The notes under the pieces were generated by a model. That model had not been told where the DNA came from. It worked only from the letters and a program-made list of their open reading frames with translations, and made no database searches. DNA of 64,000 nt from Candidatus Latescibacterota bacterium (GTDB lineage Bacteria; Latescibacterota; UBA2968; GCA-2709665): contig OZ220733.1 in assembly GCA_965116875.1 (NCBI GenBank), forward strand, positions 2,112,001 through 2,176,000, in the 5' to 3' direction. Position 1 is the stretch's first letter. Each line of letters opens with the position of its first letter. Positions 1 through 10,761 of this stretch are shown in pieces. The position numbers and the translations under genes are program-made.

Positions 1-333
1 GATCGGAAAAAACGCGGCATCCTGATGCCAGTCTACCGCCAGGCCGTCGTCCGGGCGTTTGCTGATCACGTAGGAGGTGAACAGCGCGACGTCCGGCCCC
101 ACGATCTGTGCCGCCACGTCGATGAGACCGTCGCTCAGGAAGAGATCGCGAAGATATCCGTTTTCGTAGTGGAGCGACGGCATGTTCTCGGGCCGCCGGC
201 CCGATGGAAGGCTCTCGATAATGGAATCCAGTTCGCCCCGCAGCCTTGCGAGCTCGATGTCATCGAGAATCCGTCCGCCGGCGGCATAGCCCTCGTTACG
301 GTACTGTTCGAGTTGGGCATTCGTGAGCGACAT
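1..333 (-). CDS. Phytanoyl-CoA dioxygenase (PhyH)-family Fe/2OG oxygenase; 5' part only, runs off the window start
   Basis: Not in the ORF track. Manual translation from ATG at 333 gives MSLTNAQLEQYRNEGY...SKRPDDGLAVDWHQDAAFFPI, with the WHQD iron-binding motif. Starts 4 bp after the folC stop. Confidence 0.85.
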   Translation of the reverse strand, partial: MSLTNAQLEQYRNEGYAAGGRILDDIELARLRGELDSIIESLPSGRRPENMPSLHYENGYLRDLFLSDGLIDVAAQIVGPDVALFTSYVISKRPDDGLAVDWHQDAAFFPI

Positions 334-337
334 GGCG

Positions 338-2572
338 TTACCCTTCCGCGTTTTCCGTCCGGGTCGATTCCTGAATGCGTTCCGGTTCGCCGTCCCGCGC
401 GGCCGGCGACTCCGATGCCTGCAGGTACTTTGCAATCAGCCTCTCGTATATGCCGACGAATTCGGATCGCCCGTTGTGCAGGTTGTAGAAATAGCACATC
501 GGGTTCGGATTGATCTCGATCACCCGGAATCCCGCGGACGACCGAATCACATCGATCGCATAGAACCCCAGCTCGATAACGCCCGACACCCTCGCCGTCA
601 GCCGCGACAGCGCATCGATCAGTTCCGGTGCGTCCACCGGCCTTGCGCTTCCGGTTGGCCCGTGCAGCGGATTCAGGTCGCGGCTCGGCGATTCGCTGAC
701 TTTCTCGTACGCCAGCAGCAATTCATCCCCGGCGGCGACGACCCGATACTCGGGTCCGCTGACGTGCTCCTGAACCAGCATCAAATTGTCCAGGAATCCG
801 CTGTTTTCGAACAAGCTCCGCAGACGTCTCTTCAGATCGCACCGGTCTCCCTCCAGGAATACGCCCTGGGCCAGCGACCCTCTGTTTCGCTTGACGACGA
901 CGGGATAGGAAAACCGACGTTCAACGTCCGAAACCACCGCGTCGACGGACGCATGAGTCCGGTAACGCGAGAACCGTTCGTCCGCAAATGGATTGAACGC
1001 CACCAGGGTTGCAGGAAGCGGAAGCCCGGCCCGCGCGAACAGTTCGTACTGGTATGCCTTGTCCTCCGCCAGGCGGGCAGCCACGTAGTCGTTGAACGGA
1101 TGCCGGTTGCGCAGAAAATAGACCGGCCCCCGTCCGGGCGGCCGGATGCAGACCAGATTTCCGTCTTCCGAAGCCGGTTCGACTCGAACACCCAGGTTGG
1201 CGCCGGCTTCCGTGAGGCACGCGAGACTCTCCTTGTGCAGGTCCTCTCCGAACCCGTCCCGCTCGCACGGCAGCCCCAGCGCTTCGCGCGCCCTGCCAAT
1301 GAGATGCAGCGATCCCATGATACAGACGTGACTCTCCTCCCGCAACCCCGCGCGTCCGAGCGCGTCCGCAATGTCATGTGCGCAACGGGCGGAAAGCCCC
1401 GTGGGAAGGCTCTGCCGCAACACGTCGACAGCCAGGGCTTTCGGGTGGTCGGATCTTGTCAGCACCACTTTTTTTGCCAGCGGCCGGATCGCTTCGAGTA
1501 TCCCCCCGGCGTCGTGACCCGCGTTCACCCCCACCACGAACGTCCACTGCTTCGACATCCTGCCCAGATCGTCCGCAAGGGCCGCGGCGCCGGAAGGGTT
1601 GTGCGCGCCATCCAGTACGACCCGGGGGGTTCGCCGCGCCACCTCGAATCTGCCCGGCAGGTCGAGACCGGTCAGGGCCGCGCTGATCCGGTCATCCGAA
1701 AGGTCCTCCCCCACAAGGTGGCGCCCGACCGCAATCGCCAGCCGGGCGTTCTCCCGGAATACGGACCCGCGGTCCGGCATATCCGGACGCGGGAAATCCG
1801 GAGCTGCGCAAACCCGGTCTCCGTCCGTTTCGACGACGCGAAGATCCACGTCCCGGTCCCGGCACTCGCGGCGCAACAGCGCGAGCACATCAGGTTTCTG
1901 CGTGGCCGAGGTGAAGAGCGGCCTTCCGGCACGGGCGATTTCGAGCTTTTCCAGTGCGATCGCCTCCACCGTATCGCCCAATATTTCGGTATGATCGAGA
2001 TCGATCGACGTGAGGACTGCCACACCCGCATCCCAGGCGTTGGTTGCGTCGAATCGGCCGCCCAGACCCACCTCGAACACCCCGATTTCGACGCCGGCAT
2101 GTGCGAACATGGACGTCGCCAGCGCCGTTAACGCCTCGAACCTGGTAAAGGAACCGTATCCCTCCCCTTCGAATCCGCGCGTGCGATCGTAAAGGTTGGA
2201 GATCCACTTCGCCCAGTCGTCCTTATCCAGAATCCGGCCCTCGATCCGGATGCGTTCGCGGATCGTGTGCAGGTGCGGCGAGGCGTAGACGCCGGTCCGT
2301 CGGCCGCATGTCCGGAGCAGGGCGGCAATGACGCTTGCCACCGTTCCCTTGCCGTTCGTACCGCCCACGATGACAGTCGCAAAATCCCTCTGTGGACTTC
2401 CCATCCGTCGCAAGAGGGCCCGCATCCGGGGCAGATAGTCCTCCGGCGAACCCGCCGCCGTCCCGTCCCGTTCCCAGTCGTGAAGCGTATTCAGAAAGCG
2501 TTTGCCGCGAGAATAGTCCATACAGACAGGGTTCCCGTCCAAAACATCAGGCCCGGTTTCGGTGTCGCGCAT
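338..2572 (-). CDS. folC: Folylpolyglutamate/dihydrofolate synthase fused to a C-terminal RimK-like ATP-grasp ligase
   Basis: FolC motifs GTNGKGT, SPHL, FEVGLGGRFDATN, IDLDH, PGRFE, LDGAHN. Then ATP-grasp motifs AEDK, YPVVVK..GSLAQGV, VQEHV, EYRV, AIDVI, IEINPNP. Start may be 2521. Confidence 0.9.
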   Translation of the reverse strand: MRDTETGPDVLDGNPVCMDYSRGKRFLNTLHDWERDGTAAGSPEDYLPRMRALLRRMGSPQRDFATVIVGGTNGKGTVASVIAALLRTCGRRTGVYASPHLHTIRERIRIEGRILDKDDWAKWISNLYDRTRGFEGEGYGSFTRFEALTALATSMFAHAGVEIGVFEVGLGGRFDATNAWDAGVAVLTSIDLDHTEILGDTVEAIALEKLEIARAGRPLFTSATQKPDVLALLRRECRDRDVDLRVVETDGDRVCAAPDFPRPDMPDRGSVFRENARLAIAVGRHLVGEDLSDDRISAALTGLDLPGRFEVARRTPRVVLDGAHNPSGAAALADDLGRMSKQWTFVVGVNAGHDAGGILEAIRPLAKKVVLTRSDHPKALAVDVLRQSLPTGLSARCAHDIADALGRAGLREESHVCIMGSLHLIGRAREALGLPCERDGFGEDLHKESLACLTEAGANLGVRVEPASEDGNLVCIRPPGRGPVYFLRNRHPFNDYVAARLAEDKAYQYELFARAGLPLPATLVAFNPFADERFSRYRTHASVDAVVSDVERRFSYPVVVKRNRGSLAQGVFLEGDRCDLKRRLRSLFENSGFLDNLMLVQEHVSGPEYRVVAAGDELLLAYEKVSESPSRDLNPLHGPTGSARPVDAPELIDALSRLTARVSGVIELGFYAIDVIRSSAGFRVIEINPNPMCYFYNLHNGRSEFVGIYERLIAKYLQASESPAARDGEPERIQESTRTENAEG

Positions 2573-2609
2573 GCAGGATTGGCGACAGGAGGCAGCCCGT
2601 CCCTAACAT

Positions 2610-2644
2610 AAAAAAAAACCCACCTGGAAACAAAAGGTGAGTTT
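2610..2644 (-). terminator. Probable intrinsic terminator after rpmB
   Basis: Imperfect hairpin AACCCACCT/AGGTGAGTT next to an A9 tract (U-tract on the minus strand). Confidence 0.5.
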
Positions 2645-2726
2645 ATCCGGCCCGGCATCCTCTCTCGGCGCTTCCCCGCCTCTCTGGAGGGAACCGCGGG
2701 GGACGTCCGACGACGTCGGTTGCAGC

Positions 2727-2918
2727 TTACGCTGCCTTGTTCACGCGGCCGAGTTTAATACACTTCGTGCAGACCTTGATCCGCCTGGCCGTCCCGTCCA
2801 CCAGCGCACGCACACGCCTGAGATTCGGATTGAACCGCCGCTTCTTCTTATTATTGGCGTGACTGACGTGGTTGCCAACCATCGGGCCCTTTCCGCAAAT
2901 GTCACATCTAGCAGCCAT
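2727..2918 (-). CDS. rpmB: 50S ribosomal protein L28
   Basis: [33 protein letters not shown]...KVCTKCIK, the Zn-binding C+ form. Confidence 0.98.
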
Positions 2919-3052
2919 CTCCAGTGCCTCCGGAATTCCTTTATTCTATTCGCCCTGTCATCTTGAAGTTGAAACCGATACGCGCCCACGTCCCCCGGCG
3001 CCCTCCGAAAAACGACGAGACGCCCCGGCGACGCGCTGTATCCAACACAACA

Positions 3053-3080
3053 AATATACCTGTCAGACGTCACTTGTCAA
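3053..3080 (-). promoter_or_regulatory. Sigma70-type promoter for rpmB
   Basis: TTGACA (3080-3075), 16-nt spacer, TATATT (3058-3053). Confidence 0.65.
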
Positions 3081-3210
3081 GAAAGAACCCTGATCGGGAT
3101 CCCTTTCAGCGACTCGGGATCCCTGCCGGGAGCCCCGCCTTTCCACGCGTGCGGTTGGACGTTTCGCAGGTTGCGTCGGGTTTCGCGCGTCAGGATATGA
3201 ATGCCGCCCG

Positions 3211-4437
3211 TCATCTCGGAGGCTGACTTGAGGTGCGGAATCGTACGAACCACAGTTCAACATTCGGAAGCGTTCCGGTGCTGAACACTGCACAGGGCTC
3301 GCCGGGTATCAGGCTACCGCTGGCCGGTGCGATCCCGTACAGGAAAAATGCATTCTTCAACCCGAAACCCTCAAAGCTACCGAGGGCAACCGCGGACCAG
3401 CTTCGGGCGCTATCTTCGCCGCGGTACAGCAGGAGCGCGTTTCCTGCGGTGCTGGACGTCCACATTCGCCCGCGTTCGCGAGGACTCTCGAAGATCGCGG
3501 CGATTCCCGCGCTTCCAGTGAATACCGCCTTCCACCGGCGCTGATCGGGATCCCGACGGTAAACGAGCAGTTGGTTCTCTCCTCCCTCGGGCCGGAGTGT
3601 GGCCGTCACAAACAGCGCGCCGTTTTCCGATCGCCAAATCGACTGGGCGAAGGCGAGGTTCTGTTTCCATGGATTCACGTCGGCGATCACTTCCGAAACG
3701 GCTGACGCCGGGTCACCATATGGCACGTACAGGTAGTTAATCCGGTTGTAATAGGAACTGCGGTAGGCGTTATTACTCACGACGAGGTGGAAACCCTCGC
3801 CGTCCGGGACGATCAGTGGGTACAGCCACGTCGTCCACGGCTCAATCGACCGCTGCTCCCGCGCAAGAACAAACGGGCCGGCCCAGGAACCGGACTCCAG
3901 GTCGACCCACGCGACCTGAAAGGAATAGGACCCGGGTCTGCCGATATATCCAAGGACGAGCCGATCGCCGTCCATGGCCGCACCGATATAGCCGGCGCGA
4001 TCCAGCCCGACCGGCAGCGCGATCCGGGCGAATCCGCGGGGGTCGCCGCGCCTGCGCTGATGCAGAATCCGGGGTCCGGTGTCGCGGCGGGCATGGATGA
4101 GTACGAGGCGCCGTCTCGAGTCCAGCAGGACCATCCCCGGTTGATGGTGGAGCCCCTCCCATTCGAAGAACGTCTCCCAGCCGTCTTCCGTACTCCGGTA
4201 AACTGTCCCCCTGGCGGCGTCCTGGCGCGGCCCCCACCGGCCCAGCGTGTAAAAATGGTCGCCGTCGAACACCAGCTTGGGCGCATTGTAGCCCCAATAC
4301 GGGCTGACCGATGCAATGCCGCTGTCAATGCGGGTCAGTTCGAAGTCCACTTCCGCCTCCTGCGCGGCCAGAGGCAGGACGCCTGCCAGCAGTACGAACC
4401 ATCCACTGAAGAACGATTGAGAGATCAGGCGTATCAT
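3211..4437 (-). CDS. Secreted hypothetical protein, probable beta-propeller/BNR-like fold
   Basis: Signal-peptide-like MIRLISQSFFSGWFVLLAGVLPLAAQEA and repeated YRS...W beta-strand motifs. The ORF extends to 4476. Confidence 0.6.
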   Translation of the reverse strand: MIRLISQSFFSGWFVLLAGVLPLAAQEAEVDFELTRIDSGIASVSPYWGYNAPKLVFDGDHFYTLGRWGPRQDAARGTVYRSTEDGWETFFEWEGLHHQPGMVLLDSRRRLVLIHARRDTGPRILHQRRRGDPRGFARIALPVGLDRAGYIGAAMDGDRLVLGYIGRPGSYSFQVAWVDLESGSWAGPFVLAREQRSIEPWTTWLYPLIVPDGEGFHLVVSNNAYRSSYYNRINYLYVPYGDPASAVSEVIADVNPWKQNLAFAQSIWRSENGALFVTATLRPEGGENQLLVYRRDPDQRRWKAVFTGSAGIAAIFESPRERGRMWTSSTAGNALLLYRGEDSARSWSAVALGSFEGFGLKNAFFLYGIAPASGSLIPGEPCAVFSTGTLPNVELWFVRFRTSSQPPR

Positions 4438-4565
4438 ACGTTTTTGGCGGATCAGCAACCATCTTCCGCTTGACAAAATTCAGCGCATCGACCATTTTTT
4501 CTGCAGGTCCTGCGGTCAACTCGTTCTGAAGTTCTCCCGCCGCCCGTCGTTCCGGGGAGTTCCCA

Positions 4566-5909
4566 ATGCCGTCAGTAAACCTCATAACGCTCGGATGTCC
4601 CAAGAATACCGTCGACTCGGAACGTATGCATCGTCTGTTGGAGCGCAACGATTACGTCGTGGCAGAAGAACCCGATCACGCGGACATCATCGTTGTGAAC
4701 ACGTGCGGCTTCATCGAACCGGCCAAGGAGGAGTCCATCGCCACAGCCCTCGAAGCCGCGGACTACAAGGAGACCGGCAACTGCAAGGGCCTGATTCTCA
4801 CCGGGTGTCTGGCCGAACGATACCGCGGGGAACTCGAAGCGGATATTCCCGAGGCCGACCTGGTCGTGGGCCTGGCCGGCGAACGCGAGATCGTCTCCCA
4901 TTGCGACCGGCTGCTGGGTATCTCGCGGCCCCGCGTCTATCGTGACGAAGGCGCCCGTCACCTGCTCACCCCCGGTCACTGGGCCTACCTGCGCATCTCC
5001 GACGGCTGCGACAGGACCTGCACCTTCTGCGCCATACCCGGTATACGGGGCGCGAACCGCAGCGAGTCCATCGAGGTCCTGGTTGCCGAAGCCTGGCGCA
5101 TGGCCGCAGGCGGCGTGAAGGAGATCGCGCTGATCGCCCAGGATACGATGCGTTACGGCGCCGACCTCTACGGTCGTCCGCGCCTGGTGGACCTCCTGCG
5201 CGAACTCGTGCGCATCGACGGCCTCGAATGGATCCGCCTGCTCTACGCGTACCCAACCGGCTGGCGGGACGACCTGATCGACCTCCTGGCGCGGGAGGAA
5301 AAGCTGTGCGCGTACTTGGATATGCCCATCCAGCACGCTTCCAATGCCATGCTCAAAGCGATGAATCGCGGCGCCACGGTGGAAAATACGCGCTCGCTAA
5401 TACGAAAACTCCGGGACCGGGTGCCCGGCCTGACGCTACGCTCCTCCGTAATCGCGGGTTTTCCCGGCGAAAGAGAGGAACACGTACAGGAACTTCTGGA
5501 GTTTGTCGAGGAGATCCGCTTCAACCGGCTGGTCGGCTTCCTCTACTCGCACGAGGAAGGCACCCGGGCAGGTCTCCTCGAGGACGACGTGCCGGAAGAC
5601 GAGAAACGGGACCGGCTGGACCGTATCCTCAGCCTCCAGGCCGTAATCTCATCCGAAATCACCTCCGGGTACGTTGGCGAAAGCCTCCGCGTCCTGGTCG
5701 ACCGTCCCGCCGACGATCCTTCCAGCGACTATGTCGGTCGAACGCGAATGGATGCTCCGGAGATCGATGGCGAAGTTTTCGTTTCAGGCGAAGCGCAAAT
5801 CGGCGAGTTTACCGACGTTGAGATTACGGACGCGCTCGATCACGACCTCATCGGACGATCCACGGCCGTCCCGCGCCTGCTGGATATCGCCGCGCCGGGG
5901 GGCCAATGA
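4566..5909 (+). CDS. rimO: Ribosomal protein S12 methylthiotransferase RimO
   Basis: LGCPKNTVDSE, NTCGFI, radical SAM CDRTCTFC, C-terminal DAPEIDG TRAM domain. Confidence 0.97.
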   Translation: MPSVNLITLGCPKNTVDSERMHRLLERNDYVVAEEPDHADIIVVNTCGFIEPAKEESIATALEAADYKETGNCKGLILTGCLAERYRGELEADIPEADLVVGLAGEREIVSHCDRLLGISRPRVYRDEGARHLLTPGHWAYLRISDGCDRTCTFCAIPGIRGANRSESIEVLVAEAWRMAAGGVKEIALIAQDTMRYGADLYGRPRLVDLLRELVRIDGLEWIRLLYAYPTGWRDDLIDLLAREEKLCAYLDMPIQHASNAMLKAMNRGATVENTRSLIRKLRDRVPGLTLRSSVIAGFPGEREEHVQELLEFVEEIRFNRLVGFLYSHEEGTRAGLLEDDVPEDEKRDRLDRILSLQAVISSEITSGYVGESLRVLVDRPADDPSSDYVGRTRMDAPEIDGEVFVSGEAQIGEFTDVEITDALDHDLIGRSTAVPRLLDIAAPGGQ

Positions 5910-6382
5910 CCGTCATCGCCGCCATGGCCGACAACCGGGTGATCGGTAAAGACAATGCCATGCCATGGCGCATCTCCGAGGATCTCGTGCATTTCAAGAG
6001 AACGACCACGGGCGGCGTTCTCATCATGGGGCGCAAGACTTTTGAGTCCATCGGCTGCAGGCCCCTGCCGAACCGCCCCCACGTCATCGTCAGCCGCTCA
6101 CTCCCGGAAACCGCCGGCGTCGACGTCTGCCGCACGTTCGAAGCGGCGCTCGAGAAAGCCAGGTCCTACGGGAAGCCCGTGTTCAGCGCGGGCGGCGCCG
6201 AGATCTACCGCCAGTCCATTCCCCATGCGGATCGAATGTATCTCTCGCGCATCAAGGGCGACTATTGCGGCGACACGTACTTCCCCGAATTCGACGAGAG
6301 CGAATGGCGACTGACCAGGGAAGAAGAACGCGCCGAATTCACCCTGTGCGTGTATGAAAGAAGGGTAGAAGTGAGAGGGTAG
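5906..6382 (+). CDS. folA: Dihydrofolate reductase
   Basis: NRVIGKDNAMPW, IMGRKTFESIG, RPLPNR, GGAEIY, GDTYFP. ATGA overlap with rimO. Confidence 0.97.
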   Translation: MTVIAAMADNRVIGKDNAMPWRISEDLVHFKRTTTGGVLIMGRKTFESIGCRPLPNRPHVIVSRSLPETAGVDVCRTFEAALEKARSYGKPVFSAGGAEIYRQSIPHADRMYLSRIKGDYCGDTYFPEFDESEWRLTREEERAEFTLCVYERRVEVRG

Positions 6383-6546
6383 ACGGCAGAAGAAATTCTT
6401 GCCCAATCTGCTCTTCTTCTATGTCTCCGGTCTGAACTCAAACCTCACGGGGCAGACAATCTCTCCCGTCTCCCGTCTTCCGTCTAACCGTTTTTATTGA
6501 CCGCTGACGGCCGAAGGCCATTCCGGCAGGGAATATAGGGAATATA

Positions 6547-7383
6547 ATGAAACAATACCTCGATCAGCTACGATATATTCTGGACAACGGCGTCAGAAAG
6601 GAGGACCGGACCGGCGTCGGCACGATCTCCTGTTTCGGCCTGCACGCGCGGTACGATATGAGTGACGGATTCCCCGCCGTCACCACGAAAAGGCTCGTGT
6701 GGAAATCCATGCTCTCCGAACTCCTCTGGTTCATCTCGGGATCCGACAACATCAACGACCTGAAGGAGATCTATCCCTACAACAAACTCTGGGACGGCAA
6801 CTACCAGGACTACCTCAAGAGAATCGGCCGGGGCGACAACAGCGGATCGATGGGGCGCATCTACGGCGTACAGTGGCGGGATTGGCGGGGAGCGGAGCGG
6901 AACGTGGACCAGTTGAGCGAGGTGATCGACCTGATCCGCACCAACCCCGATTCAAGGCGCATGATCGTGAACGCCTGGAATGCCGCCGAAGTCGCTCCCG
7001 AGGACGTCGCCCTTCCTCCCTGCCACTCCTTCTTCCAGTTCTACGTTGCGGAAGGCAGACTTTCCCTGCTGATGTACCAGCGTTCGTGCGACATGTTTCT
7101 CGGCGTCCCGCTCAATATCGCCTCCTACTCACTCCTGCTGCACATGGTTGCCAGGATCACGGGCCTGGAACCGGGCGAATTCATCCATACGCTGGCCGAT
7201 GCCCACATCTACCTGAGCCACCTGGACGCGGTCAGGGAGCAACTGTCCCGCGAGCCGTTCCCGCTTCCGCGCATCCATATCGCGGACCGCGGCCAGAAAA
7301 CCATAGACGAATTCGTCTACGACGACTTCCGGCTGATCGACTACCGCTGCCATTCCGCTGTCAAGGCCGAAATGGCGGTGTGA
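6547..7383 (+). CDS. thyA: Thymidylate synthase
   Basis: DRTGVGT, YGVQWR, SRRMIVNAWN, LPPCH, YQRSCDMFLGVP. Confidence 0.98.
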   Translation: MKQYLDQLRYILDNGVRKEDRTGVGTISCFGLHARYDMSDGFPAVTTKRLVWKSMLSELLWFISGSDNINDLKEIYPYNKLWDGNYQDYLKRIGRGDNSGSMGRIYGVQWRDWRGAERNVDQLSEVIDLIRTNPDSRRMIVNAWNAAEVAPEDVALPPCHSFFQFYVAEGRLSLLMYQRSCDMFLGVPLNIASYSLLLHMVARITGLEPGEFIHTLADAHIYLSHLDAVREQLSREPFPLPRIHIADRGQKTIDEFVYDDFRLIDYRCHSAVKAEMAV

Positions 7384-7443
7384 ACATACGTCGGGAGTCG
7401 GTCCTGCCACAACTTCTGTTTCCCTTTCGCGAGGAATTTCGCC

Positions 7444-10400
7444 ATGTCAGATCCAGCAATACCCTGGCGCCCCAGGGTTATCCTCCCGGGACGCAGCTTC
7501 CGCCTGCCCGTTCAGGCGGCCGATGGCAACGTTAACCTGTCCGCCGAACACTTCGAAACAATCGCCACGAGGTGGTCCGATCGGGACGCCGCGCTCTACC
7601 ACTATCTCCGGTCTCCCGCACGGGCGGGGGAATATACTCTCAGCGCCACGCACGGCGGCGGATCAGCGGAAACAACGATCCGCGTCAGCACCCTGGACGA
7701 CCTGCGCCGTCCGCATACCTACAACGGCGCGGCCTGGCCCCGCCGCTGGCCTCTGGAGAGGAATTACCGGTCGACGAAAACACGGCAGACGATGCAGAAC
7801 GAACCCTTGCCGGATCGATTTGACGAAGAAACCGTGGCGTGGTTGTCTGCCCAGTCAGATGAAATCCTCTGGGCGCAGCTCCCCAACTCGGAACTGCCCA
7901 AGGCCCACTTTGCCAACTGCCACCAGGGCTGTCCGAACTGCGGTACGGCGATCTTCAGATACAGCGGTTTTTATCCCTGGGTGCGCAGCCACCATCCGTG
8001 TGATTTCAGGTCCGAGTGTCCCAACTGCGGTTCAGCCTATCCGAGCAACGACCTGGCGGGCGAAGACTTCATTTCGGGCGAACATCCGGACGACGGTTTC
8101 GGATATTTCGACGCCGAGGGCCACATCTACCTTTTCGCCGCGACCTATCACAGGGATCAATGCCGCAGCTACAATTCGGGAATCGCCGCGATGACGAACG
8201 CGCTCCGCGCCGGCGGGTTCCATGAAGCTCGCGCGAGGCAACTCGGGCTGCTCCTTCTGCGCTATGCAGAGGAAGAACTCTACCTGGCCTCGGTCCCCCA
8301 GTTCCGCTACGGCCCGTCGAAGGGCGTGGAAGAACCCTGGGACTGGGGCCAGCCGGACTGGGCCGACGACTCCGACCCGGTCCAGGCGCTTCGGGCCAAG
8401 GGCAGCATCCGTTACAGCATCGATACCCCGTATCTGATCGAAAGCCTGGCATTGGCTTACGACACGGTCTGGCCGTTGATGCGCGAAGACCGCGAGCTCA
8501 TTGGACGAGCCCGGGCCGTGGGCATCTCCGTGCGGTCCCCCGAGGACGCCTGCCAACTGACGGAAGAGATGCTGGCCGCCCTGCTTCAGGTCACGCTGGA
8601 CCGGGGCGCGTCCAGCAACCTTCCCAGAGAGAGCCAGGGAGCGCTCAATATCCTGCGGTGCCTGGACCGGCCCGACGCTCGGGACGTGATGGAGTGGGTC
8701 TACGACGAGGGACCGGACACGCTGCGGGTCTTCACCACAAACGATTTCTTCCCGGACGGCATGCCGCAGGAGGCCACCGGTGGTTACAATTCTATCCACA
8801 GCGACGGCTTGTTCGACCTGGAGCATCACCTGCGTCATCTGCGCGACCTGCAACCTGAGGCCTACCCGGCGTCCGACTTCCCCTCGCTCTTCGAGGATCG
8901 CCGTGCCGCACACGTTCCCCGGGCGCTGCACGAAATCACGATGTGCGGCAAGTCGTATTTCCAGTTCGGGGACGGGTCCGCGCCGGGTTCCGCGGGCTCC
9001 AAGGGAGAGGGAACGATCCGGCTGGAAAACGACCTCTTTCACGCGCCGATGGATCCCAATCTTCTTGCGAGAGCCTTTGCGTTCACGGACGACCCGCTTG
9101 TGCGGGAGATCCGGTCGGCCGTTGAGGAACGCGGGCACCGGGCTCTCGGCCCCACGGTCCACGACGGCGTTGGCATCGCGATCCTCCGAACCCGCGAAGC
9201 GCCCGAACGTGCCGCGGCCGGCATCGTCTACGGGGACACCCTCCACCATCGCCACCGGGACCTTCTGGACGTGCAGTTGTTCGCTTTCGAGCGTCCGTTT
9301 CTGACCGACCTCGGATACCCTCAGTCCTGGGCCAGCATGTCCCCCTGGGAATCCCACTGGGCAACCCATAACACCGTCTGGTCCGACCTGCCTCCGGGTG
9401 AATCCGTCGCCGCCGGCCGGGGGCGCCTGGTGCGCAGCCTGTTCGTCGACGGGCTGCAGGTCCTGGACGTCGAGGCGCACCGTTGGTCGCACGAGGAGTC
9501 GCGAGGCTGGCACAGGCTCGGGGTAGCCTACCGTCGGCTTATCGCCCTCGTCGAGACCGACGGCGAAGGCGTCGCCCTCATCGACCTTTCACGGATTACA
9601 GGAGGCGGTGACCACTGGCGTACCTGCCGTGGCCTGGAAGGTAGTTTCCACTCGGACAACGCCGGACTCCTGCCGCGAACCGGAACCGTCGCCGGTCCCC
9701 GTATCGAACGCGGGCAGACGGACAATCTTCCTCATCCGGACCACACCGCCCTGGCGTATATGGATGACGTGTCGGCCGGCCAGGCGCCTCCTTCGTTCAG
9801 CGGGGCCTGGCGCTCACAGGCCGAACCCGCCGTCCATCTGGATCTTCATCAGGTCCACGTCTCTCCCGGTACCCGTCTTTTCACCGCACGTGCGGCACAG
9901 GCGATGGGGACACCCGATGAGTCCAACTACCTGTATTCTCCGGTCCTGTGGCGACGGTCGCCGCAGGACGACACCACGTGCGTCGATCTCGTATTCGAGC
10001 CCCGAACCGGCGAAGCGACCGTTGCGGAAGCCGTCGCCGTATCCGCGGATGCTCCCACCGCCGCGGGGGTCAGACTGACCACGGCGCACGGCAAAACGAT
10101 CGTGCTTTACTGGTCGCCCGAGGCCGGTCCGGCCGACGCCACGCGCTTTGAAGACGGCGTCACGTTGCACGGCGGCTTCGCGGCCGTGGTGGACGGACGG
10201 ATATCGACCGTGGGCGCTTCCGCGTTCCACTCCCCGGCGACCTCGATTGCAGTCGATCGGGCGCGGCAGGCCGGCCGCATCGTCGCTCTCGACCGGGATG
10301 CGTGTACGATCGACGTGGAGGGCCTGGAGGGCGTCGCCGCCGGGGACCGTCTGACCGTGAATCCCGACGAACGCGCCCACACCTACCGTGTCGAAGCCGT

Positions 10401-10761
10401 CGAACCCGTTGGCGCGCCGATCCTTCGCCTGACGCTGGACGTCACCTCCCTGCTCGGCCGGGCGAGCGTGGTCGCGGCCCAGGACGGTAGAATCGACTTC
10501 GGCTTTCACATCCTTGCGAAGTCGGGAAACCTCAACGGCACTCGGATTCAGACCGGCGCAAACGACGACTGGGCGGTGATTTCCAACGCGAGCAATGAGC
10601 GTTCCTGGCCGCCCGGCCCCGTGCGCACCACGGTCCTCATCGACCCCAACAGGGGCGACGGGGACCGGCTTCTGAATCTGGCAACCGGCGCATGGGTTCA
10701 GATCGTGGACTACGTCGTCGGCGATTCGGTCCTCTACGAGCCAGTCGGGTCCAGTGGATGA
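7444..10761 (+). CDS. Large heparinase II/III-like (polysaccharide lyase-fold) protein with N-terminal CxxC motifs
   Basis: HHRHRDLLDVQLF...DLGYP...THNTV and E..GGY motifs typical of Hepar_II_III proteins. CHQGCPNCG and CPNCG near the N-terminus. Confidence 0.6.
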   Translation: MSDPAIPWRPRVILPGRSFRLPVQAADGNVNLSAEHFETIATRWSDRDAALYHYLRSPARAGEYTLSATHGGGSAETTIRVSTLDDLRRPHTYNGAAWPRRWPLERNYRSTKTRQTMQNEPLPDRFDEETVAWLSAQSDEILWAQLPNSELPKAHFANCHQGCPNCGTAIFRYSGFYPWVRSHHPCDFRSECPNCGSAYPSNDLAGEDFISGEHPDDGFGYFDAEGHIYLFAATYHRDQCRSYNSGIAAMTNALRAGGFHEARARQLGLLLLRYAEEELYLASVPQFRYGPSKGVEEPWDWGQPDWADDSDPVQALRAKGSIRYSIDTPYLIESLALAYDTVWPLMREDRELIGRARAVGISVRSPEDACQLTEEMLAALLQVTLDRGASSNLPRESQGALNILRCLDRPDARDVMEWVYDEGPDTLRVFTTNDFFPDGMPQEATGGYNSIHSDGLFDLEHHLRHLRDLQPEAYPASDFPSLFEDRRAAHVPRALHEITMCGKSYFQFGDGSAPGSAGSKGEGTIRLENDLFHAPMDPNLLARAFAFTDDPLVREIRSAVEERGHRALGPTVHDGVGIAILRTREAPERAAAGIVYGDTLHHRHRDLLDVQLFAFERPFLTDLGYPQSWASMSPWESHWATHNTVWSDLPPGESVAAGRGRLVRSLFVDGLQVLDVEAHRWSHEESRGWHRLGVAYRRLIALVETDGEGVALIDLSRITGGGDHWRTCRGLEGSFHSDNAGLLPRTGTVAGPRIERGQTDNLPHPDHTALAYMDDVSAGQAPPSFSGAWRSQAEPAVHLDLHQVHVSPGTRLFTARAAQAMGTPDESNYLYSPVLWRRSPQDDTTCVDLVFEPRTGEATVAEAVAVSADAPTAAGVRLTTAHGKTIVLYWSPEAGPADATRFEDGVTLHGGFAAVVDGRISTVGASAFHSPATSIAVDRARQAGRIVALDRDACTIDVEGLEGVAAGDRLTVNPDERAHTYRVEAVEPVGAPILRLTLDVTSLLGRASVVAAQDGRIDFGFHILAKSGNLNGTRIQTGANDDWAVISNASNERSWPPGPVRTTVLIDPNRGDGDRLLNLATGAWVQIVDYVVGDSVLYEPVGSSG

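Follow-up and report, generated by a model that had tools for sequence, protein, structure and literature searches.

We analysed a 64,000-nucleotide stretch of a Candidatus Latescibacterota bacterium genome (GenBank assembly GCA_965116875.1, contig OZ220733.1, positions 2,112,001 to 2,176,000 of the forward strand; hereafter, the window) and found that a single open reading frame (ORF) at 338..2572 joins a FolC enzyme (dihydrofolate synthase/folylpolyglutamate synthase, DHFS/FPGS) to an ATP-grasp ligase domain. Sequence comparisons indicated that the addition of a conserved RimK/LysX-like ligase domain to FolC is a clade-wide trait, and that the fusion is genuine and old, is fixed in three families and is under selection in each of its halves. 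How long the folate tail is, and how its residues are linked, governs retention of the cofactor, the tightness with which enzymes bind it and its cutting by hydrolases. We consider the chances evenly balanced that the second ligase would extend or cap this glutamyl tail, most probably with alpha-linked L-glutamate.

A one-frame fusion of the two domains had been put forward in a preliminary description of the window, and was borne out: one ORF of 744 amino acids contained both. In an alignment of 27 homologues, 26 started at the column of M18 and one started two residues earlier, and M18 is probably the true start of the fusion gene, which therefore probably occupies 338..2521. The parts of the gene, all on the minus strand, were as follows.

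338..2572, minus strand: whole ORF, 744 amino acids from the first ATG, without internal stop; stop codon at 338-340
338..2521, minus strand: probable true gene, 727 amino acids, start at M18 (MDY...)
1277..2521, minus strand: FolC half (DHFS/FPGS), residues 18-432, about 415 amino acids, TIGR01499 match above cut-off
2345-2362, minus strand: P-loop GTNGKG of the FolC half, residues 71-76
Residues 321-326, minus strand: DGAHNP motif of the FolC half
1241..1276, minus strand: inter-domain linker, residues 433-444, with L434, E437 and E443 invariant, modelled as flexible
425..1240, minus strand: ATP-grasp half, residues 445-716, about 272 conserved amino acids, with a short N-subdomain (445-500) followed by central and C-terminal subdomains
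Invariant ATP-grasp residues, minus strand: K505, K561 (890-892), E608, R610, D674 (551-553), E686 (515-517) and N688 (509-511)
ATP-grasp motifs, minus strand: DLNPLH at residues 632-637 and NPNPxCxFYNxxNGR at residues 688-702
341..424, minus strand: C-terminal tail, residues 717-744, 28 amino acids, unconserved

The NCBIfam model TIGR01499 (folC) was matched over positions 1-398 of 400 by residues 47-430, with 290.5 bits against a cut-off of 162.65. Pfam placed the RimK ATP-grasp domain at residues 503-692 (36.5 bits, cut-off 21) and, in the FolC half, Mur_ligase_M at residues 69-213 (33.6 bits, cut-off 24) and Mur_ligase_C at residues 307-421 (51.6 bits, cut-off 28.4). Both halves appeared to be equally constrained, the ATP-grasp half being slightly more conserved, with mean pairwise identities of 0.575 (FolC) and 0.591 (ATP-grasp) and with 86 of 415 and 67 of 272 columns invariant, respectively. 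Mean pairwise identity was 0.63 across the linker region (433-452) and 0.19 in the tail (717-744), where the predicted local distance difference test score (pLDDT) of the AlphaFold model fell below 50 at residues 721-744. The preliminary description had called the FolC part intact at about 445 amino acids and the ATP-grasp domain complete at about 290. Integrity was upheld for both, by the folC score and invariant motifs in the one case and by a confident model (pLDDT 93.5) and its alignment to ArgX in the other, and the lengths were revised to about 415 (residues 18-432) and to a conserved part of about 272 followed by the 28-residue unconserved tail. PF27239 was considered as a novel linker domain and rejected, as its name in the ESM Atlas is FOL3_C, a FolC-side domain.

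The same architecture recurred across a large protein collection and across the phylum. A word-indexed search of 5.8 billion proteins, in which 8,000 candidates were scored, gave 1,226 matches, and the best 120 of these were all 680-766 amino acids long, with 91-98% query coverage and 51-97% identity. Among all 168 genomes of the window's phylum, the ATP-grasp half was present in 123, all in three families of one class: 20 of 21 genomes of family f1, 31 of 31 of f2 and 71 of 76 of f4 (122 of 128; family counts exclude genome G000, itself of f1). None was found in the 3 genomes of f3 or the 36 genomes of f5-f14 in this survey. These matches lay in open frames of at least 690 amino acids in 121 of 123 cases, and the other two frames (674 and 529 amino acids) came from assemblies of 640 and 980 contigs. 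The folC model was found in 161 of the 168 genomes. In the fused families the FolC and ATP-grasp matches were immediate neighbours that shared contig and strand (27 nucleotides apart in G000), and most fused-clade genomes had a single FolC match; the unfused FolCs of other families occupied frames of 425-510 amino acids. A scan of species-representative genomes yielded at least 80 loci, of which at least eight (L009-L016; six Latescibacterota and two Gemmatimonadota-type by their titles) matched both halves and the other 72 matched the FolC half only.

An artefactual joining of two separate genes, through loss of a stop codon, frameshifting or assembly chimerism, has, in our judgement, practically no chance of explaining these data; nothing was found in its favour, and the same frame was present in each of the best 120 clusters and in 123 genomes. 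Two metagenome contigs crossed the junction without gaps, one of 758 bases from run X4 (window 1036-1793) and one of 144 bases from run X3 (window 1214-1357). Run X1 held the whole stretch without differences and may be the source. The preliminary description had raised the prospect that the two domains are separate genes in close relatives, but no split form was seen in an exhaustive HMMER search with the ATP-grasp half or in the phylum survey, where the fusion was kept in 123 of 168 genomes. A single short protein, P0125, was nested in the fused clade; we read it as a fragment rather than a split gene, because it begins inside the N-subdomain helix on a contig of 1,087 bp.

The genome, a single contig of 5.45 Mb with a completeness of 97.7%, encoded folP (301 bits) and folK (143.7 bits), and in a whole-genome search with TIGR01499 the fused FolC (292.9 bits) was the sole match above the cut-off, the other two matches scoring 46 and 24 bits. 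Folate is thus made de novo here, with the fused protein as the only FolC. Across 28 sequences, G71, N73, G74, K75, D321, A323, H324, N325 and P326 were invariant; these residues fall in GTNGKG, which we take to be the Mur-ligase ATP-binding P-loop, and in DGAHNP, presumably the FolC C-terminal-domain motif. The nearest solved FolCs were those of Mycobacterium tuberculosis (2vor, 165 bits), Thermotoga maritima (1o5z, 157 bits) and Escherichia coli (1w78, 150 bits), with Lactobacillus casei FPGS at 120 bits, and by these scores the FolC half appeared nearest to bifunctional FolCs and not to a single-function enzyme.

In a FolC tree of 55 sequences, the 15 fused halves formed one clade (Shimodaira-Hasegawa-like approximate likelihood ratio test support, SH-aLRT, 100), whose stem measured 1.08 changes per column, and this points to a single origin. 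This clade stood apart from 15 canonical Latescibacterota FolCs and weakly (support 31) beside Methylomirabilota-type FolCs. An approximately unbiased (AU) test did not reject its grouping with nine canonical Latescibacterota FolCs (p 0.45), a group picked after seeing the tree, and transfer and vertical descent would fit alike. The TIGR01499 scores of fused FolC halves were 260-300 bits versus 320-411 bits for the phylum's unfused FolCs. Two genomes of one fused-clade genus carried a second, canonical-type FolC (G165:C361:45-1232 and G166:C5:974-2191; loci L101 and L100); these second copies scored about 365 bits versus about 290 for the fused copies, and in the FolC tree they fell apart from the fused halves, among other phyla.

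The class of the ATP-grasp half was taken from profile scores and fold ranks. The rimK_fam model (TIGR00768), matched over positions 76-255 of 276 by residues 493-691, fell short of its cut-off (65.6 versus 143.4 bits), and LysX (TIGR02144) reached 49.2 bits against 275.6. The cyanophycin synthetase models (TIGR02068 and NF010623) gave 38.3 and 40.5 bits against 850 and 877, with about 110 ATP-grasp residues matched, and the NCBIfam models of CofF (TIGR04443) and MptN (NF040720) did not match the fused protein at E <= 0.01. A rimK_fam search of five named genomes returned one bona fide member. An AlphaFold model of this half, built on a 65-sequence alignment, had a pLDDT of 93.5 and a predicted template modelling score (pTM) of 0.88. 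In a fold scan of 48,161 PDB representatives its best match was ArgX (3vpb; Z 22.3, 246 residues aligned, model 4-279 versus chain 8-281), followed by LysX/ArgX 5k2m (Z 21.9) and RimK 4iwx (Z 19.9), above the D-Ala-D-Ala ligases (Ddl; about 18). Foldseek likewise placed RimK, ArgX and LysX in the lead (rank 1, RimK 5zct), then CphA1 (rank 13) and Ddl, and by sequence the closest solved structures were RimKs at 33-34 bits. These scores and ranks suggest that the ATP-grasp half is of the RimK/LysX/ArgX kind and a member of no named family. The label "RimK-type" in the preliminary description thus fits in the broad sense, the fold being nearest to ArgX/LysX and RimK, but not as family membership (65.6 versus 143.4 bits; CofF and MptN unmatched).

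This half was complete, with an intact active site. K505, P557, K561, E608, R610, D674, E686, N688 and P691 were invariant in 65 fused and standalone sequences, and K561, D674, E686 and N688 lined up with the ATP/Mg residues of RimK. The N-subdomain, which the rimK_fam hidden Markov model did not cover, was modelled as one helix and three strands of about 50 residues and aligned from ArgX residue 8; it is thus predicted to be present but shorter than in RimK. An incomplete ATP-grasp domain was ruled out by the AlphaFold model together with the fold alignment over model residues 4-279. Three arginines, R533, R536 and R583, were invariant in 28 fused proteins, but no more than 2 of the 16 standalone sister proteins had them, a pattern that would fit recognition of a polyanionic ligand.

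Searched exhaustively with HMMER, the ATP-grasp half had 677 matches at E <= 0.001 but only 16 at E <= 1e-30. Most of the 677 were standalone proteins of 265-320 amino acids aligned from about residue 447 to the end. None of 18 standalone relatives scanned in NCBIfam reached any curated cut-off, and against the CofF and MptN models they scored 22-39 bits (cut-offs 300 and 350). In an 83-sequence tree, the fused domains (10, plus P0125) formed a clade with support 100, and their sister, inside a 27-tip clade (support 99), comprised all 14 members of a small standalone group and two more. The sister proteins, about 270 amino acids long and of a family without a name, shared 33 invariant positions with the fused domain, including NPFN, DLNPLH and NPxCxFYNxxNG. 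An ESM Atlas model of one sister protein had a template modelling (TM) score of 0.92 to the ATP-grasp part of a 113-member, 704-amino-acid Latescibacterota cluster. Metagenome contig scans with P0136 and P0128 did not find relatives. A guess that Patescibacteria host the sister family was followed through the genome of locus L026; 0 of 251 genomes carried a member, and at 1.7-7 Mb these genomes were too large for the label behind the guess to be trusted. The closest standalone relatives (P0136, P0278 and P0279) were rich in K, N and Q, some with C-terminal tails rich in Q, S and H, and came from contigs of about 0.97-1.03 Mb.

The rest of the genome was inspected for molecules on which such a ligase might act. 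Neither methenyl-tetrahydromethanopterin (H4MPT) cyclohydrolase, CofE nor the LysW carrier protein was found in this 97.7%-complete genome, nor was a bona fide RimK. RimK requires a terminal Glu on ribosomal protein S6, and the S6 encoded here ended in ...NEEAA, not Glu. Folate is the only glutamyl-tailed molecule of a known kind that this genome is shown to make, because CofE, H4MPT cyclohydrolase, LysW and RimK were missing and the S6 end is not Glu.

We propose that the FolC half would serve as the housekeeping DHFS/FPGS, adding the first glutamate and then gamma-linked ones, activities suggested by its family membership. The ATP-grasp half would take the folyl(poly)glutamate from the FolC half, activate a free carboxylate of its last glutamate as an acyl phosphate and couple an amino acid there. 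By analogy with RimK, CofF and MptN, this amino acid would most probably be L-glutamate, attached via the alpha-carboxyl. The short linker would tether the halves so that the FolC product is handed on, and the tail would end extended or capped by a linkage that gamma-glutamyl hydrolases do not cut. ArgX/LysX and RimK presumably ligate an amino acid onto the terminal glutamate of a tail, and the PDB title of RimK names it a poly-alpha-L-glutamate synthetase. The second-ligase proposal of the preliminary description was thus supported in part: a real and ancient fusion, its status as sole FolC and an intact ATP-grasp domain speak for it, while we infer by analogy that folate is the substrate, that glutamate is what is added and that the linkage is alpha.

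Several observations weigh against this proposal. The ATP-grasp half scored below every curated cut-off, and therefore specificity cannot be carried over to it from any characterised enzyme; its closest standalone relatives lacked the three arginines of the fused form (at most 2 of 16 carried them). The activity spectrum of the FolC half itself may have changed, because its stem branch is long and its TIGR01499 scores are lower. The full-length AlphaFold model (pLDDT 79.4, pTM 0.62; linker 437-442 below 50) predicted no fixed arrangement of the FolC and ATP-grasp halves. Finally, the gene neighbourhood lends no folate-specific support, folA and thyA being near the fusion only in close kin.

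Other roles for the two halves can be drawn from the same data. The FolC half might add the first glutamate only and leave all elongation to the ATP-grasp half, giving poly-alpha-glutamate or another tail. The long stem of the single fused FolC clade (SH-aLRT 100, 1.08), its scores of 260-300 rather than 320-411 bits, the title that RimK bears in the PDB and the single FolC match in most fused-clade genomes would all suit such a division of labour. We nevertheless regard it as distinctly unlikely, since the FolC half is still above the folC cut-off, has bifunctional FolCs as its closest solved relatives (150-165 bits) and retains an invariant P-loop and DGAHNP. Improbable, too, is an ATP-grasp half that acts on a non-folate target (a protein C-terminus, a peptide or a metabolite) and is fused for co-expression or for a shared supply of glutamate and ATP. 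S6 ends in ...EEAA rather than Glu, LysW is absent from the genome, the fusion is kept in 122 of 128 genomes of the three families (without G000) with a conserved linker sequence, and the named fused ligases MurC/Ddl, GshA/GshB and CphA each, as we generalise, serve one pathway. These points are set against the facts that the nearest solved relatives modify proteins (RimK, S6; ArgX/LysX, LysW), that the sister standalone family has no FolC domain, that AlphaFold did not fix the interface between the halves and that, in a genome without a bona fide RimK, a RimK-like role is vacant.

A catalytically silent ATP-grasp half, serving FolC as a regulatory or oligomerising module or as a sensor of ATP or glutamate, appears very unlikely. 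RimK and its relatives, which we take to be oligomers, and an N-subdomain apparently shorter than that of RimK would be compatible with it, but the ATP/Mg ligands are all invariant across 65 sequences, a larger share of columns is invariant than in the FolC half (67 of 272) and the standalone sister family shares the conserved substrate-loop motifs DLNPLH and NPNPxCxFYN. Beyond the proposed extension or capping of the tail by a second ligase, a bolder version is possible though doubtful, namely that a RimK/LysX-like ligase builds or finishes the tail of a previously undescribed, class-wide folate vitamer (as alpha-linked poly- or oligo-glutamate or with a non-glutamate cap), FolC doing little beyond the first glutamate. 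If this were true, the fused domain and its standalone sisters would be the first genetically defined folyl-alpha-amino-acid ligases.

The background given in the preliminary description, on alpha-linked folates of E. coli and addition of alpha-glutamate by CofF, was found in two papers. PMC1971073 cites alpha linkages in E. coli folates, the activity having been reported biochemically in 1986 in work cited there, and according to PMC8498797 F420 receives a terminal alpha-linked glutamate from CofF. An E. coli folC mutant was used in PMC1971073 for a complementation test of another FolC candidate. By its NCBIfam name, MptN is the alpha-L-glutamate ligase for tetrahydromethanopterin. To our knowledge, the folyl-alpha-ligase activity of E. 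coli has never been assigned to a gene, and we know of a genetic basis for gamma-linked tails made by FolC/FPGS only. Solved structures from E. coli included no close member of this ATP-grasp family, the best being RimK at 33.5 bits; therefore, the fusion does not directly name the alpha-linking enzyme of E. coli. A full-text literature search returned no paper on a FolC-ATP-grasp fusion or on Latescibacterota folate metabolism.

These results tie the sole FolC of the fused families to the kind of ligase that places alpha-linked glutamates on the tails of S6, F420 and methanopterin. They also offer a concrete protein for asking whether mixed-linkage or capped folates exist and what makes them, and correct the names in database records, which read "cyanophycin synthetase", "Mur ligase family protein" or plain DHFS/FPGS. 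More speculatively, a hydrolase-resistant folate could matter for vitamin exchange in sponge and coral-reef symbioses, because carriers of the fusion were found in sponge and coral-reef metagenomes. Words of the gene were present in sponge, coral-reef and marine metagenome runs from 8 studies, and contigs from X3 (coral reef) and X4 (sponge) were 95-100% alike to the gene. Run X6, whose library is labelled metatranscriptomic, gave four contigs on both halves; these are only a weak hint at expression of the fusion gene, as contigs do not prove transcription and the library may contain DNA.

The preliminary description had also noted two genes of folate metabolism nearby, and their positions were confirmed.

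5906..6382, plus strand: folA (dihydrofolate reductase), DHFR_1 169.4 bits; near the fusion in two of eight fused loci
6547..7383, plus strand: thyA (thymidylate synthase), 347.5 bits; near the fusion in one of eight fused loci

This proximity does not argue for a function, given that folA and thyA were kept in only 2 of 8 and 1 of 8 fused loci. Both genes lie on the strand opposite to the fusion gene, beyond two unrelated genes. A rimO-like gene and folA recurred in L009 and L011, and thyA in L009 only. In the window, the RimO/MiaB-type methylthiotransferase gene (4566-5909, plus strand; UPF0004, radical S-adenosylmethionine (SAM) and TRAM_2 domains) overlaps the folA start by 4 bases, and the two are probably co-transcribed because of this overlap. 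Elsewhere the fusion had different neighbours, with MoaA (radical SAM and Mob_synth_C) upstream in five of eight fused loci (L012-L016) and a Cys/Met-metabolism pyridoxal phosphate (PLP) enzyme downstream in four (L012-L015). Across L012-L016 (around 4900-6000 and 8000-9400), MoaA, the fusion gene and the PLP enzyme were all on the same strand, and the set may form an operon that connects the metabolism of pterins, folate and methionine.

Following the fusion gene on the same strand was a PhyH-family (Fe/2-oxoglutarate dioxygenase-like) ORF at 1-435 (minus strand), scoring 23 bits against a cut-off of 22; its start is probably near 333, where an in-frame Met (MSLTNAQ...) lies a few bases from the fusion stop. 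A homologue occupied the same place in L009 (86% identity over 111 amino acids) and not in the other seven fused loci. Between the fusion and the rimO-like gene, the ORF at 3211-4476 (minus strand) encodes 421 amino acids with a hydrophobic N-terminus and no Pfam match (76% identity in L009). The 1,105-amino-acid product of 7444-10761 (plus strand) had as its sole Pfam match a borderline Heparinase II/III C-terminal domain (24.6 bits against 24) and was kept in L009 and L011 (61-85% identity). This protein is a possible polysaccharide lyase, and such an activity would be in keeping with life in association with sponges. Rfam gave, in window 1-9000, just a sub-threshold anti-hemB match (21.9 bits against 49.5, E 0.14), taken as chance, and a promoter/terminator scan was uninformative, with 2 promoter-like sites against 1.1 +/- 1.2 expected.

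Compared to bacterial FolC, the fused protein is alike in its above-cut-off score, its Mur-ligase P-loop and DGAHNP motif and its position as sole copy beside folP and folK, but differs in the extra ligase domain of about 290 amino acids and in a long-branch FolC part scoring about 100 bits below the phylum's unfused FolCs. RimK (4iwx, 5zct and 7qyr) resembles the ATP-grasp half as its top Foldseek match (Z 19.9), with ATP/Mg residues and the N-x-L-H loop aligned, whereas the fused half is below the RimK cut-off, has an apparently shorter N-subdomain and carries about 16 extra residues around RFxRY (527-542), opposite a gap in RimK, in a genome whose S6 does not end in Glu. LysX/ArgX (3vpb, 3vpd and 5k2m) were the best structural matches (Z 22.3 and 21.9 over about 245 residues), but the LysX score was 49.2 against 275.6 bits and LysW was not found in the genome. 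With CofF and MptN the fusion would share a logic, that of a RimK-like ligase adding an alpha-linked glutamate to a cofactor tail, but not a profile match at E <= 0.01, and the genome lacks both CofE and methenyl-H4MPT cyclohydrolase.

CphA1 (7wac, 7wae) likewise combines the ATP-grasp and Mur-ligase superfamilies in one polypeptide. Its ATP-grasp part is N-terminal, whereas in the fusion it follows the Mur-ligase part, so that the preliminary description was correct in calling the domain order the reverse of that of cyanophycin synthetase; in addition, the fused protein scored far below the cyanophycin synthetase cut-offs and its Mur-ligase part is a bona fide FolC. Fused MurC/Ddl and GshA/GshB (GshF) belong to the peptidoglycan and glutathione pathways and are akin to the fusion in sequence at the superfamily level only, but they share its arrangement of a ligase N-terminal to an ATP-grasp ligase of the same pathway, and GshF (3ln7) was among the fold matches. 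NCBIfam names both of these fusions for consecutive steps, and they offer a precedent for a FolC joined to a second ligase.

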